Shown one piece after another: positions 1 through 64,000 of a stretch of 64,000 bases of DNA (its first letter is position 1; every line of letters begins with the position of its first letter). The notes beneath the pieces are model-generated. The model was not told the origin of the DNA. It searched no databases and saw only the letters and a program-made list of their open reading frames with translations. A program made the translations under genes and the position numbers. Source of the stretch: an uncultured Gammaproteobacteria bacterium. GTDB lineage: Bacteria > Patescibacteriota > Patescibacteriia > Magasanikbacterales > GWA2-37-8. Location: positions 37,600-101,599 of the forward strand of contig CAZWKA010000001.1 in the NCBI GenBank assembly GCA_964634875.1, read 5' to 3'.

Positions 1-94
1 GGGGGAAATGAGGTCAAAGGTGTTGTTTGCTTCTCCCCAATTCAGTTAGGAAAACCGGGGAGAAGCGGTGAATACGCGTATCAAGCAAAAGTGC

Positions 95-487
95 TTAGCG
101 GCAGAGCTCAACAATGTAAGGCGGGCTGAGCGACTGCATACAGCTGCAGTATGCCTGATAACCGTGCTCTTTACGAACCTGCTGGCAGGCGAGCATTTCG
201 CATCCATACTCGTTCTCAGGCAGGTTGTGGCTCCAGTTTGGCTCCAGGTTCATCGAAGCCTTGATCTCCTGGGCGTCGTCGCTCTCGCGGCACAGGTCTG
301 GTGCAGCCAGCCACTGCTGCATGAGCAAGCAACGGGCAGTGATGGTGTCTCGCTCGCCCTGAGCCTGGGTGAACACCTCGTAGGCGTTTCGCAATTTGCT
401 GCACTTACCCTTGCAATCCGGTGCACCAAGCAGCGCAAGAGCAGTCAAACCGATGCCTAAACGTTGACAGAAACCTACAGCTCGCAT
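95..487 (-). CDS. Small Cys-rich (about 11 Cys) secreted protein, GC-rich, 130 aa
   Basis: ORF with strong upstream SD on minus strand (AAGGAGGAtccccATG, revcomp of 488-505); N-terminal hydrophobic signal-like segment; the overlapping +strand ORF 68..460 lacks any RBS. Confidence 0.45.
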   Translation of the reverse strand: MRAVGFCQRLGIGLTALALLGAPDCKGKCSKLRNAYEVFTQAQGERDTITARCLLMQQWLAAPDLCRESDDAQEIKASMNLEPNWSHNLPENEYGCEMLACQQVRKEHGYQAYCSCMQSLSPPYIVELCR

Positions 488-554
488 GGGGATCCTCCTT
501 TAAGGCCAATGTAAGCATAAAAAGGGCAAAGAGTCAAGATTGTAAAGTTGTATT

Positions 555-583
555 TTGACAAAAACCATCATTTCCACTATAGT
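555..583 (+). promoter_or_regulatory. sigma70-like promoter TTGACA-17nt-TATAGT driving the ileS leader
   Basis: TTGACA at 555-560, 17-nt spacer, TATAGT at 578-583. Confidence 0.5.
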
Positions 584-589
584 AAAAGT

Positions 590-783
590 ACCCACAGAAC
601 TTCTCGCTATCACCGAGGAATCCGCCCAAGGCGGACTGTCGAGAAAAGAAATTGGCTAAATTTAGCCAAAAATAGACTTCTCCGGGTAAGCCCGTTATCG
701 CTATCAAATGAGTATAATGCCGAGATGGTACCGCCCACTAGAAGGGCTCTCGCACGCTAATTTAAGCGTGTTTTTATTTTTGT
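590..783 (+). promoter_or_regulatory. Candidate T-box riboswitch leader (Ile specifier AUC-A) ending in intrinsic terminator 753-775
   Basis: About 190-nt leader before ileS; stem I candidate with CUAUCA loop (ATC at 609-611); antiterminator-like GAGA-UGGUACC-GCCC-loop-GGGC-UCUC at 722-750 (UGGU complementary to tRNA ACCA end); terminator CACGCT-aattta-AGCGTG + TTTTTATTTT right before ATG. Confidence 0.5.
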
Positions 784-60320: not shown

Positions 60321-60322
60321 AG

Positions 60323-61717
60323 CTAATTTTTTTGTTCAGCGTGGCGTTCAAATACCTGGTCAATAGTGCCGGCCATGTAGAAATGCTGTTCGGCAATTTC
60401 ATCACATTCGCCATTGAGAATTTTTTGGAAACCAAGTACGGTGTTGGCGCGGGAGACGTATTGACCGGCGGCTCCAGTGAAAATTTCAGCTACAAAGAAA
60501 TTCTGTGTCAGGAAGCGCTGGATTTTGCGGGCGCGTTGCACAGTGAGCTTATCTTCTTCCGAAAGCTCGTCCATACCCAAAATAGCAATGATATCCTGGA
60601 GTTCTTTATAGCGCTGGAGTGTGCGCTGTACTCTGGTTGCAACTTCATACTGCTCAGCGCCAACAATTTCGGGTTTGAGCGCGAATGAGTTGGAATCAAG
60701 CGGGTCAACTGCCGGGTAGAGCCCCATTGAAGCCAGTTTACGGGACAATACGATGGTAGCGTCGAGGTGGGCAAACGTGGTGGCTGGTGCTGGGTCAGTC
60801 AGGTCGTCAGCTGGTACGTACACGGCCTGTACCGAGGTAATGGAACCCTTATGGGTGGAAGTGATACGTTCCTGGAGGCTGGCCATTTCGGTGGCCAGGG
60901 TTGGTTGGTAGCCGACAGCCGATGGTAAACGGCCAAGAAGAGCCGAGACTTCGGCGCCAGCCTGGGTGAAGCGGAAAATATTATCGACGAACATGAGGAT
61001 GTCTTTACCTTGTTCACGGAAGTGTTCGGCAATGGAGAGACCGGTAAAGCCGACGCGTAAACGGGCACCTGGTGGTTCGTTCATCTGACCGAAGACCATG
61101 GCGACTTTGTCCATAACACCTGCATGTTTCATTTCTTGGATGAGATCGTTTCCTTCACGGGAACGTTCACCAACACCAACGAATACTGAATAACCACCGT
61201 GGGACAAGGCGACGTTATGGATAAGTTCTTGGATGATAACAGTTTTGCCGACGCCAGCACCGCCAAAGAGGGCAACTTTACCACCTTTTACAAACGGGGC
61301 GAGCAGGTCGATAACTTTAATACCAGTTTCAAAAATTTGAACATTTTTGCTTTGTTCGGATAATTTAGGTGGCTGGGCGTGGATAGATCGGCGGGTAATT
61401 TTTTTATCAAAAGTAGGCCCGTTGTCGATCGGTTCACCGGTGACATTGAGTACCCGGCCCAAAACAGCTTCCCCAACAGGAGTAGTAATAGGGGAGAGGG
61501 TGTCCATCACTTCCTGTCCTGCGCCAAGCCCGTCGGTAGAAGACATGGCAATCGTGCGCACAACGCCTTTACTCAGGTGAGCCTGGACTTCGAGTGTAAT
61601 CTTTGGATCAGACGTGGTAACCAATGCTGAAAATTTTTGGGGCGTATGGTCGTTAAACTCGACGTCGACGACGACACCGACCGCGCGGATGATTGTTCCT
61701 TTAGGATTCGTGCTCAT
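60323..61717 (-). CDS. atpD: F0F1 ATP synthase beta subunit
   Basis: P-loop [17 protein letters not shown]; start MSTNPKG at 61717. Confidence 0.95.
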
Positions 61718-61721
61718 AGGA

Positions 61722-62651
61722 TTAATATACTTCAAGTAAAGCTTCTTCGCCGATAGTGGCCTCACTTCCAGCGGCTATTTCACATAATTGTTGTGTGATC
61801 CCGGCCTGCCTGGTTTTGTGATACTGCAAGGTAAGTGATTTTATCATGTCGTCGGCTGCTTCAGTCGCTTTTTTCATTGCAACCATGCGGCTGGAGTATT
61901 CGGCGGCTTTAAACTCATTAAACGACTGCATAAACAAGCTGTGAATCAATTGGTGTGCTAGCGTTTCTATGACTCTGCCTTCGTTTGGTTCGAAAAAGAA
62001 GTGCTGTCCGACAGTGTTTGTATCTTCTTGAGTGTTCCGCATCGTTGCCCGCCAGTTCAAATGTTCAGCAATCATTTCGCTTGAAAACGGGAGGTAGGTT
62101 GAAAGCCGGGGTATGCTCAAAAAAGGATTGACGTAGTGCGTGCTTACCATGTAAATTTTTTTCGCTTCGCCTGAATCCCAGTAGCTGGCAATGGTGTTGA
62201 TCAGGTGAAACGCTGTCATGGCATCAAGTCGCTCACTAATTCCAGGGAAATGCGCGGCAATCGGAATATTCCTTCGGTTCATGTAATCATAGCCTTTGCG
62301 CCCGATGGTGATAAGTAGTCGTTCGGCTTCTGGGGTAGTTGTCCATTCTTTGCTCTTGAGCAGATTCTGGATCAGGCGCACGTTGAGCGCTCCGCAAAGA
62401 CCCTTGTCAGACGTAATTAACACAAAGACGTTTTTCCCGCTGTTTCTTTTTTCTGCTAATGCCAAATCGCTCAGGCGGTGATGGCAGAGCGACATGGCCT
62501 CAAGTAGTTTCCAGGCATATTCACGGTTATGAGTCGCTTGCCGTTGAAAGTACTTCATTTTATTGGCCGCCACAAGTTGCATCGCTTGGGTAATTTTGCG
62601 ACTGCTATTGACCGATTCAACTTGTTTCTTGATTTCGGCGAGAAACGCCAT
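61722..62651 (-). CDS. atpG: F0F1 ATP synthase gamma subunit
   Basis: [29 protein letters not shown] canonical N-term. Confidence 0.9.
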
Positions 62652-62654
62652 ACG

Positions 62655-64000
62655 TTATTTTTTAAAGAAATCAGTTGCCGCGGCTGCTAATTCGCTTTCA
62701 ACTTCGGGAGTTAGGGTTTTACCGGTTTCGATCGTCGTAACCAGTTGTGGTTTAAATGATTCTACGTGTTCCAAGAATTGGATTAATTTGTCGGCTACCG
62801 CTGCTGTTGGAGTTTCGTCAACATACCCTTTGAGCGTAGCGTAGAGCACGGCACATTCCTGCCACAGCGGTCGAGGACGGTTTTGTTTTTGTTTGAGGGC
62901 TTCGATAAGACGTTCGCCGCGGGTCAGTTGCTTTTTGGAAGAAGCATCAAGTTCGCTAGCAAACTGGGCAAAAGCAGCGAGTTCGTAATATTGTGCCAGG
63001 TCAAGCTTGGCGCTGCCAGACAATTTTTTCATGATGTGAGTTTGGGCGGCCGAACCAACGCGTGATACCGAAATACCAACGTTAATAGCCGGACGGATGC
63101 CGCGGTAGAAAAGACCGGGTTCAAGGAAGATCTGACCATCGGTAATGGAAATAACGTTGGTTGGAATATAGGCAGAAACGTCACCAGCCTGCGTTTCAAT
63201 AATAGGCAGAGCCGTGATAGAACCGCCGCCATGTTCGGGATTAAGTTTTACAGCGCGTTCGAGCAAGCGAGAGTGAATATAAAACACGTCACCAGGGTAC
63301 GCTTCGCGACCTGGGGGTTTGCGCAGCAAGAGTGATACTTCACGGTAAGCGATGGCATGCTTTGATAAATCATCGTAGACAACCAGCACATCTTTTCCTT
63401 GTGCTAGGAAAAATTCGGCAATTGCTGCTCCGGCATACGGCGCAAGAAACTGCACAATGGCTGGGTCTCCGGCCGAAGCGGAAACCACGACCGTGTACTG
63501 CATCGCTCCAGTATCGGTGAGTGTTTTGATGACTTGAGCGGTTTTAGAGTCGCGTTGGCCGACAGCAACGTACACACAGATCATGTTTTGGCCTTTCTGA
63601 TTGATGATGGTATCAAGGGCAATGGCAGTTTTACCGGTCTGACGGTCGCCGATAATAAGTTCACGTTGTCCGCGACCAATAGGAATGAGGGAATCGATTG
63701 CCAGGATACCGGTTTGAACCGGTTGTGAAACGGACTCGCGAGCCATAACACCGGCGGCTACGCGTTCAAGTGGCATTAAGACAGTTTTCTGAAGTGGGGG
63801 CTGTTCGTCGAGGGGCTTTCCGAGCGGACTAACAACGCGGCCGATAATCTGGTCGCTGACCGGGATAGCAAGGGATTTTCCGGTGCGGACGGCTGCAAAC
63901 CCGGTGCGGAGCTCGATAGAAGGATCAAGGCTAACGGCGATATTGATATCACGGCCGACCTGGAGCACCACCGCTTCAGTACCGGTTTCTTCGATAGTAA
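62655..64000 (-). CDS. atpA: F0F1 ATP synthase alpha subunit (5' end beyond window)
   Basis: P-loop GDRQTGKTAIA; N-terminal about 55 aa missing, gene runs off the window. Confidence 0.9.
   Translation of the reverse strand, partial: TIEETGTEAVVLQVGRDINIAVSLDPSIELRTGFAAVRTGKSLAIPVSDQIIGRVVSPLGKPLDEQPPLQKTVLMPLERVAAGVMARESVSQPVQTGILAIDSLIPIGRGQRELIIGDRQTGKTAIALDTIINQKGQNMICVYVAVGQRDSKTAQVIKTLTDTGAMQYTVVVSASAGDPAIVQFLAPYAGAAIAEFFLAQGKDVLVVYDDLSKHAIAYREVSLLLRKPPGREAYPGDVFYIHSRLLERAVKLNPEHGGGSITALPIIETQAGDVSAYIPTNVISITDGQIFLEPGLFYRGIRPAINVGISVSRVGSAAQTHIMKKLSGSAKLDLAQYYELAAFAQFASELDASSKKQLTRGERLIEALKQKQNRPRPLWQECAVLYATLKGYVDETPTAAVADKLIQFLEHVESFKPQLVTTIETGKTLTPEVESELAAAATDFFKK

Follow-up and report, generated by a model that had tools for sequence, protein, structure and literature searches.

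Two gene classes with distinct base composition and start signals in a Magasanikbacteria genome

The 64,000-nucleotide stretch of contig CAZWKA010000001.1 analysed here (the window) carries two classes of gene that differ both in base composition and in the signal that precedes the start codon. Seventeen of its 74 genes are rich in guanine and cytosine (class B, mean GC content 0.59) and stand singly among 57 backbone genes (class A, mean GC content 0.47); a strong Shine–Dalgarno (SD) sequence precedes 16 of the 17 and one of the 57. An initial annotation had described at least fifteen GC-rich, SD-led open reading frames (ORFs) set one by one into a low-GC, SD-free backbone. That description holds, with the 17 genes at a GC content of at least 0.535, our cut-off for class B, covering all the ORFs that it listed. 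Class B is compositionally coherent, turns over between related genomes and is reproduced by an independent assembler. Simple recent gene import explains the pattern only in part. We lean, at something short of even chances, towards reading class B as a flexible gene pool common to the clade: its members would probably have a foreign, SD-using ancestry, would be exchanged by recombination without mobility genes and would have retained their SD sequences for lack of the native start context. A GC-biased process acting within the genome is a serious rival to import.

The gene set was curated from the ORF list of the window. Two ranges of the initial annotation, 27291-29159 and 53673-56339, were split into two genes each; five class-B starts were reset to SD-supported ATG codons (10189, 19856, 22104, 32126 and 35004), and those at 45983 and 49431 were left as they had been. 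On the evidence of GatB, whose named homologues at 70-73% identity come mostly from Candidatus Magasanikbacteria or the Patescibacteria group, the backbone belongs to Candidatus Magasanikbacteria, a lineage within the candidate phyla radiation (CPR/Patescibacteria).

Composition and start signals of the two classes

GC content along the window (49.1% overall) swings between 0.42 and 0.67 in discrete peaks, each a single gene wide. The GC content of the 74 genes is better described by two Gaussian components than by one (Bayesian information criterion −216 versus −198), with means of 0.469 and 0.594 and 22% of the weight in the upper component; class B totals 13.1 kb, or 20% of the DNA of the window. 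For Lys and Glu the backbone prefers AAA (77%) and GAA (80%), whereas class B prefers AAG (65%) and GAG (63%). Pooled class B lies at a Karlin dinucleotide distance (delta*) of 140 from the backbone, compared with 25 ± 7 (maximum 46) for size-matched subsets of the backbone. The initial description is borne out by GC content, codon use and delta* alike. For every one of the 17 class-B genes, the signature of the rest of class B is nearer than that of the backbone; among backbone genes, the backbone is the nearer in 51 of 53. When 6.5-kb halves are compared, delta* is 48 ± 15 within class B and 42 ± 13 within the backbone. In two related genomes, L091 and L005, class B stands at a delta* of 137 and 129, respectively, from its own backbone.

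All 17 class-B genes start with ATG and have a GGAGG-like purine block upstream, 5-10 nt before the start codon. A duplex energy of −6 kcal/mol or lower with ACCUCCUUU is reached by 16 of the 17 and by 1 of the 57 backbone genes (Fisher p=4e-14); with the annotated starts only, the counts are 12/17 and 0/57. The sequence used is the canonical anti-SD, which is assumed for this organism because the 16S rRNA lies outside the window; neither the window nor the retrieved loci hold any rRNA. Because random 17-nt windows inside class-B coding sequence reach this energy just 10.8% of the time, the SD sites exceed what composition alone would give.

Backbone genes have a start context of their own. 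T occupies position −1 in 38 of 41 (93%), compared with 3 of 17 class-B genes (p=4e-8), and the segment from −20 to −1 is A/U-rich and nearly devoid of G. Upstream GC content is 0.32 for the backbone and 0.50 for class B, and the folding energy from −30 to +30 is −4.8 versus −10.9 kcal/mol (p=7e-6). Starts in a TATG context can be seen, for example, at 784, 8448, 11944, 14987 and 16741. The same context extends beyond this genome: at the gatB start of CPR loci (L007-L056), T is at −1 in 35 of 42, compared with 2 of 12 outside the CPR (p=4e-5), and none of the 42 has an evident SD block. Our literature searches did not find this U(−1), G-poor context described. Reduced detection of the anti-SD is known for some Parcubacteria (PMC9297842), and loss of the anti-SD occurs mainly in lineages lacking uL1 (PMC9297842); uL1 is encoded in this genome.

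A class-B unit consists, in order, of a promoter or promoter-like site, a leader of ~15-155 nt (in many cases with a strong hairpin), the SD sequence, the ORF and a terminator hairpin. Near-consensus promoters of the TTGACA-17-TATAAT type precede the genes at 9806, 22104, 27291, 38520 and 56339 (positions in the list below). Switches in composition coincide with gene boundaries, the genes are intact and bidirectional terminators are shared. Between promoter and SD, some leaders hold long, near-perfect hairpins (~23933-23987, 38980-39025, 56368-56417 and 10208-10260), which, judged from sequence, may have a regulatory or protective role.

The 13 class-B genes outside the lipoprotein array described below, and gatB as a backbone gene for comparison, are as follows.

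95-487, minus strand: possible secreted protein or lipoprotein, 130 residues; GC 0.567; SD aaaGGAGGa; promoter-like site 537-508; no match in Pfam, NCBIfam, PHROGs or PADLOC
9806-10189, minus strand: protein of 127 residues just downstream of gatB; GC 0.672, third-position GC (GC3) 0.938; SD cAGGAGc; promoter TTGACG-17-TATAGT, 10315-10287
10397-11944, minus strand: gatB, backbone example and taxonomic anchor; GC 0.484; no SD; T at −1
21265-22104, minus strand: acyl-CoA (delta-9-type) fatty-acid desaturase, 279 residues, between rplA and ribE; GC 0.587; Pfam FA_desaturase; promoter 22164-22136
24004-25725, plus strand: lipoprotein, 573 residues, carrying an alpha/beta-hydrolase domain with the serine motif GHSKGG; GC 0.574; SD cAGGGGGt
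27291-27926, plus strand: no family match, 211 residues; GC 0.536; SD gcGGAGGt; promoter 27159-27187
28098-29159, minus strand: branched-chain amino-acid aminotransferase, class IV, ilvE_II type, 353 residues; GC 0.581; SD cAGGAGGt
32126-32887, plus strand: no family match, 253 residues; GC 0.643; SD cAAGGAGt
35004-36080, plus strand: lipoprotein, no family match, 358 residues; GC 0.600; SD tAGGAGGt
38520-38966, minus strand: protein of 148 residues; GC 0.593, GC3 0.805; promoter 39088-39060; hairpin in the 5' untranslated region, ~38980-39025
45983-46426, plus strand: no family match, 147 residues; GC 0.595; SD tGAGGAt
49431-50210, plus strand: histidine-phosphatase superfamily (branch 1), 259 residues; GC 0.591; SD cAAGGAGGg
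53673-54737, minus strand: secreted protein, no family match, 354 residues; GC 0.608; SD tAGAGGAGa
54945-56339, minus strand: membrane transporter, 464 residues, family DUF1646 / predicted cation transporter; GC 0.651, GC3 0.849; SD cAAGGAGc; promoter 56529-56501

The Pfam scan took in 50 ORFs of the window, which included the whole of class B and nearly all of the backbone; the few remaining backbone genes were named from recorded Pfam matches of the same or orthologous genes in other assemblies. A Pfam domain is present in 5 of the 17 class-B proteins (one below threshold) and in about 45 of the 57 backbone proteins (p=3e-4). The backbone set is one of housekeeping functions: IleRS, GatB, ThyA, DHFR, Tmk, Dut, Dcd and uL1, together with RibE, RibH, MsrB, RuvA and subunits of ATP synthase. 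The five class-B matches are the acyl-CoA desaturase, the alpha/beta hydrolase, the class IV (BCAT) aminotransferase, the histidine phosphatase and the DUF1646 transporter. Pfam thereby bears out the desaturase, the aminotransferase, the alpha/beta hydrolase and the histidine phosphatase, and the transporter of the initial annotation has a weak DUF1646/CitMHS match. Lipoboxes are found in the proteins starting at 17717, 18434, 19110, 19856, 24004 and 35004, a signal peptide at 53673 and a possible one in 95-487, and at least 7 of the 17 proteins carry a lipobox or signal peptide. The claimed enrichment in lipoproteins and secreted proteins is plausible on these counts. Class-B proteins without a family match have no match in PHROGs or PADLOC, and single-sequence AlphaFold2 models of two of them were unusable, with predicted local distance difference test (pLDDT) scores of 31 (53673-54737) and 36 (35004-36080). 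As the initial annotation had noticed, integrases and transposases are absent: there is none among the Pfam domains of the 50 scanned ORFs. Rfam scans of the window and of L091 for RNA genes were empty.

Assembly integrity and turnover in related genomes

Three Logan contigs from run SRR12762304 match window positions 21094-26633, 27073-33759 and 33731-41920 at 99.99-100%. About 20 kb is thus reproduced by an independent assembler, including both junctions of seven class-B genes; contig L095 covers both junctions of the desaturase, and L094 spans 38520-38966. The single-gene mosaic also occurs in four relatives from other samples and assemblies (L005, L007, L091 and L096), partly at the same intergenic places as in the window and with conserved flanks. 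Together, the independent contigs and the four relatives exclude the chimeric assembly that the initial annotation had offered as an alternative to horizontal acquisition.

In L091, of which L096 is a close relative, uL1 is 93% and Dcd 97% identical to the window proteins; GatB is 82% identical in L005 and 72% in L007. L007 and L010 were grouped with Magasanikbacteria by GatB identity and gene order, and gene calls in the related genomes are crude. Recurrent variable sites lie after gatB and in the rplA-dcd, ribE-rplA and msrB-merR intervals. The protein at 9806-10189 is a singleton at 90% identity, and the region downstream of gatB holds other GC-rich genes in L005, L007 and L008. The ribE-rplA site, occupied by the desaturase in the window, is empty in L005, holds a different gene in L091 and has four other class-B genes in L096. 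L091 lacks the lipoprotein array and the gene at 38520, the two neighbours of which sit 4 nt apart there, and has extra class-B genes elsewhere. At the two junctions read in both the empty and the occupied state, no direct repeats or target duplications were found.

At other sites, the gene of the window is strongly diverged from the one in a relative. The hydrolase at 24004-25725 is 33-34% identical to its positional counterparts in L091 and L096, and the protein starting at 32126 is 26-28% identical to its positional counterpart in L091 (5005-5805), the DNA flanks of the latter being 80-91% identical and those of both alleles together 76-91%. Such divergent genes inside conserved flanks mark these sites as hot spots of gene replacement or of very fast divergence. 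Backbone proteins of L091 and L096 are 90-99% identical, with an identity at 4-fold degenerate sites of 0.34-0.63, and the hydrolase behaves like them between these two genomes (amino-acid identity 0.90, 4-fold identity 0.64). Hyper-evolution of the hydrolase in situ is possible but not required. The lipoprotein at the ribE-rplA site, by contrast with the backbone, is only 42% identical between L091 and L096, with GC3 values of 0.976 and 0.894, respectively. Class-B genes at the GC extreme are shared least and have diverged most.

The aminotransferase shows the opposite relation to the backbone. Between the window and L091 it is 92% identical, with a 4-fold identity of 0.65 compared with 0.20-0.46 for backbone genes, which indicates that it passed between the lineages after their split. 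A third sequence, from L093, is identical to that of L091, and duplicate contigs of the same organisms are nearly without single-nucleotide polymorphisms. When window 26744-29159 is aligned with L091 10118-12606, 4-fold identity is 0.65-0.68 over the aminotransferase and the N-terminal part of merR, and the gene between these conserved parts differs. To judge from the alignment, the merR-aminotransferase stretch suggests a recombination tract younger than the lineage split. L091 11180-12300, the position of 27291-27926, has a GC content of 51-59%, no ORF longer than 84 residues and no Rfam match; it may be a decaying class-B pseudogene.

Two further observations concern these loci and their wider distribution. 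A pyrimidine operon (pyrB, pyrI, pyrC, pyrD, pyrE, pyrF) lies between gatB and a Band_7 gene in L005 (11706-16867), and at least its first part lies downstream of gatB in L007 (13116-20868); the corresponding interval of the window, 9198-10396, has no pyrimidine operon and only the GC-rich ORF at 9806-10189. The same mosaic is seen in L089 (GCA_964596525.1, positions 1-16816 of a 1.34-Mb contig), the GC-rich, SD-led genes of which include a cytochrome P450, a nucleoside phosphorylase and a desaturase; this contig also encodes a Cas12a (Cpf1)-type protein. The mosaic is not a general CPR trait: across 43 CPR gatB loci, GC-outlier genes concentrate in the relatives of the window.

The lipoprotein array

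Four of the class-B genes form a co-oriented array of lipoprotein cassettes at 17617-20395, with the following parts.

17617-17645, plus strand: putative promoter of the array, TTGACA-17-TAGGGT, upstream of the first cassette arm
17717-18220, plus strand: lipoprotein cassette 1, 167 residues; GC 0.587; arms ~17665-17690 and 18258-18288
18296-18362, plus strand: 'empty' cassette without an ORF, between cassettes 1 and 2; duplex energy −21.5 kcal/mol
18434-18961, plus strand: lipoprotein cassette 2, 175 residues; GC 0.591; SD tAGGAGGa; arms 18374-18400 and 19012-19039; duplex energy −40.0 kcal/mol
19110-19703, plus strand: lipoprotein cassette 3, Cys-rich, 197 residues; GC 0.591; arms 19059-19084 and 19750-19779
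19856-20332, plus strand: lipoprotein cassette 4, 158 residues; GC 0.556; SD aaGGGGGt; arms ~19799-19826 and 20360-20393; duplex energy −36.3 kcal/mol

Each ORF of the array is bracketed by complementary arms of 28-30 nt with duplex energies of −31 to −40 kcal/mol, and every arm pairs best, or nearly so, with the partner arm of its own cassette. The arms of cassette 4 differ in sequence from the others yet remain complementary to one another. In the empty cassette, a left-type and a right-type arm stand back to back and fold as a stem-loop. The four proteins are mutually dissimilar. A matching architecture with two cassettes is present in L005 (3722-5140), where cassette 3 has a weak homologue (3810-4313, 26% identity).

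The promoter was read from the sequence, its score falling under the threshold of our promoter scan, and should be taken as putative; TTGACA-17-TAGGGT is also conserved in L005. The position of this conserved promoter, upstream of the first arm, makes transcription of the arms probable. The arms may form a processing stem of the RNase III type or a 5'-3' panhandle, or they may mark insertion into a hairpin.

Integron arrays and integrase-less attC clusters resemble this array in having co-oriented single-ORF units, imperfect palindromes and mostly no family match. They differ from it in several respects. The ORFs adjacent to the array (16839-17509) have no Pfam match and include no intI tyrosine recombinase; by eye, the arms hold no attC-type RYYYAAC/GTTRRRY core; the palindrome halves bracket the ORF; and a promoter of its own precedes the first cassette, with a separate SD for every cassette. 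No target-site duplication was seen. The likeness does not extend to the rest of class B: none of the other 13 genes has flanking repeats above background, and the idea that such a cassette signature is general to the class was rejected.

Cassette 1 has an orthologue in L005 (4518-5069, 49-52% identical), with which it shares the promoter, the flanking arms and a leader hairpin carrying compensatory changes. Identity at 4-fold sites is 0.28, a saturated value in the range of the backbone (0.24-0.37). GC3 is still 0.68 in the window and 0.81 in L005, compared with 0.38-0.55 for the backbone.

Origin of the GC-rich class

In the reading that we tentatively favour, backbone genes initiate without an SD sequence, from leaders that are short or absent, G-poor, A/U-rich and weakly folded and that end in U at −1. 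Class-B genes are self-contained one-gene modules at the boundaries of operons, with a promoter or promoter-like site, leader, SD and terminator to each. They probably derive from SD-using, GC-richer bacteria; recombination at a small number of intergenic hot spots would bring them into related genomes and carry them from one to another, with no integrase or transposase involved, and they would be quickly gained, lost and replaced. Since the native start context is missing from their structured, GC-rich 5' ends, translation would be possible only by the SD:anti-SD route, and the SD would be kept for that reason. The two classes, their signals and coherence, their turnover between relatives and the soundness of the assembly are shown by the data; a foreign origin, movement by recombination and a functional requirement for the SD are what we infer.

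This account overlaps with several known systems. In the model of Lawrence and Ochman, horizontally acquired genes are said to be of atypical composition and to ameliorate with time. Class B resembles such acquisitions in its atypical GC content, codons and dinucleotides, in its patchy distribution and in its content of accessory surface proteins and peripheral enzymes. It is unlike them in consisting of single insertions rather than islands, with no tRNA gene, integrase or direct repeat to mark them; no donor was found, and one saturated cassette shows no amelioration. The accessory class also exceeds the core in GC content, against the usual trend (PMC5303225).

Flexible genomic islands and islets with allele replacement are known from marine bacteria and from surface-antigen loci. 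Here, too, the same hot spots hold different or divergent genes within conserved flanks, and cell-surface proteins are enriched; the units, however, are single genes with a compositional class and a translation signal of their own, and replacement alone is therefore an insufficient explanation. As in the SD-poor initiation of Bacteroidota, in which an SD remains in a few genes, most genes are SD-free, with A/U-rich, weakly structured starts, and a minority has a strong SD. The near-invariant U at −1 is a difference, as is the fact that the SD minority is set by composition and not by autoregulation of the rpsU type. Our literature searches did not find the two-class pattern of GC content and SD described, and it departs from known cases in its one-gene insertions without mobility marks, its GC-rich accessory class, its two start grammars and its apparently stable composition.

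The initial annotation had proposed repeated acquisition from a high-GC donor, and part of this proposal stands. The signature is of a foreign type, presence is patchy, the 4-fold identity of the aminotransferase exceeds that of the backbone and the desaturase has relatives in other phyla. Deep protein searches were made for the desaturase, the transporter and the aminotransferase, and the remaining 14 class-B genes were checked for near-identical relatives only. The best matches of the desaturase (59-65%) lie at different loci of mosaic genomes, L087-L089, beside the P450 gene in L089; the next named relatives, at 54-58% identity, are from Acidimicrobiia and Myxococcota. Used singly or in an alignment of two sequences that gave poor patterns, the hydrolase found no relatives in metagenome scans, and scans of viral contigs with the hydrolase alignment and the aminotransferase returned nothing. 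GC-rich CPR bacteria are unlikely as SD-carrying donors because gatB in CPR genomes of 56-63% GC is likewise without an SD.

Other evidence weighs against simple import. No donor was found: for 12 class-B proteins of the window and 7 of L091 and L005, no partner at 90% identity exists outside this genome group, the only partners of the 12 at that identity being the aminotransferase of L091 and an alternative call of the gene at 35004 on its own contig. Most of the class-B proteins looked up are singletons among 15 billion proteins, as is the L091 lipoprotein with a GC3 of 0.976. Nothing above 45% identity to the aminotransferase was found outside its own cluster among 1.84 billion representatives. 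The best homologues of the transporter are at most 51% identical, the named ones are from the CPR, and the 51% homologue comes from a genome of 41% GC, its gene lacking an SD and having a GC content of 0.437. Twelve of the 17 proteins have no Pfam match, and NCBIfam matches are limited to the aminotransferase and the phosphatase.

The composition of class B tells in the same direction. Its signature is common to the window, L091 (delta* 57) and L005 (delta* 47), which many independent donors would not produce. Its stop codons are TAA in 11 of 17 genes, matching host usage; it favours CTC over CTG, as the host does; and its choice of C or G at 4-fold sites tracks that of the backbone (r=0.94). 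For cassette 1 and its L005 orthologue, sequence comparison indicates that amelioration with residence time is absent. Accessory genes, moreover, are normally GC-poorer than the core (PMC5303225).

Because the lack of amelioration, the single signature and the missing donor fit import poorly, we regard it as possible, if less probable, that class B is native. Its genes would then be long-resident and mostly fast-evolving, many of them encoding surface proteins, and a locus-specific GC-biased process, for which targeted hypermutation and a conversion bias towards GC at hot spots of recombination are candidates, would keep or drive their GC content, with the SD evolving or persisting as compensation for structured, GC-rich 5' ends. 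The GC richness of the orthologous cassette past 4-fold saturation is in line with this idea, as are the signature shared by all class-B genes and lineages, the host-like stops and preference for C over G, and the scarcity of family matches. So, too, are the same-position genes of 26-42% identity within conserved flanks, the poor sharing of the GC-extreme genes (GC3 0.976 in L091 versus 0.894 in L096 at 42% identity) and the direct evidence of more recombination at these loci than in the backbone. Against it, class B includes conserved cytoplasmic enzymes (BCAT, desaturase and phosphatase) that have homologues elsewhere among bacteria, the divergence of the hydrolase between L091 and L096 is at a backbone-like rate, and a mutational process alone would neither create an SD nor remove U at −1.

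GC-biased gene conversion has reportedly been described in recombining bacterial genes by Lassalle et al. in 2015, and the extra recombination or replacement of GC-rich genes is a point of likeness. The shift in composition here is apparently far larger than the effects reported for that process. To our knowledge, no conversion bias or other local process in bacteria reaches a GC3 shift of 0.2-0.45 or GC3 values of 0.94-0.98, which counts against a native origin. Were that origin nonetheless correct, the clade might keep two compartments past synonymous saturation, a native SD-free one with U(−1)AUG starts and a GC-rich, SD-led, fast-evolving one with its GC content actively held or pushed up; we think this possible but less than probable. 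The second compartment, enriched in surface lipoproteins and peripheral enzymes, would under such active maintenance not consist of imports in decay.

It is unlikely, in our estimate, that class B is continually re-seeded from one long-term reservoir, which could be the host of a presumed episymbiont, by way of competence, or an extrachromosomal element specific to the clade. Such a source would account for a signature as homogeneous as that of one genome and common to L091 and L005, for gain and loss between relatives, for the more recent coalescence of the aminotransferase than of the backbone and for the enrichment in surface lipoproteins. No reservoir contig or protein turned up, however, although assemblies of the same runs are in the searched collection, and class B has no PHROGs or PADLOC match and nothing on viral contigs. 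Stops dominated by TAA are atypical of a genome of ~60% GC, and an origin in the host leaves homologous genes at the same locus in sister lineages unexplained.

We consider it very improbable that class B as a whole is carried by a site-specific cassette system, whether of integron type or with terminal inverted repeats at its ends and an enzyme encoded elsewhere to mobilise it. The cassette-specific inverted repeats of 28-30 nt around the array ORFs, the empty arm pair and the same architecture in L005 are what such a system would leave; the absence of flanking repeats at the other 13 genes, of any integrase or transposase by Pfam in 64 kb, of an attC core by eye and of direct target duplications at the two empty-versus-occupied junctions is not, and the repeat halves lie on either side of the ORF, not together behind it. 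At most, the lipoprotein array could be explained by a cassette or transposon mechanism. The possibility that assembly or binning joined DNA of a low-GC organism to that of a high-GC one has composition alone in its favour and is practically excluded by switches at boundaries of intact genes with shared terminators, by the Logan contigs and by recurrence, with conserved flanks, in four genomes from different samples.

The distinction between these readings has consequences. If class B is imported, it offers a clean view of ultra-small CPR bacteria taking up single genes without visible mobile-element machinery; its composition could be compared with that of candidate hosts and might help to find them; and it would point to an expression filter, in which foreign GC-rich genes persist in an SD-free genome only if they bring a strong SD. 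If its GC richness is kept from within, it would be an unusually strong bacterial case of gene-specific evolution of base composition. Regardless of origin, gene callers and start models that have learnt one class will mis-call the other, contamination filters that rely on composition could wrongly discard genuine genes, and detection of transfer by composition may misdate class-B genes.

Two minor features of the backbone may be added. Its stop codons (n=55) are TAA in 43, TAG in 9 and TGA in 3 genes, with TGA the rarest; in most bacteria, the frequencies of TGA and TAG run the other way round. Upstream of ileS, a strong promoter-like site (555-583) lies ~200 nt before the start, and a terminator-like hairpin with a T-run (752-771) directly precedes the start codon. 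Rfam at gathering thresholds gave no match in 555-783, and from its predicted elements this region may be a leader or attenuator, possibly T-box-like.

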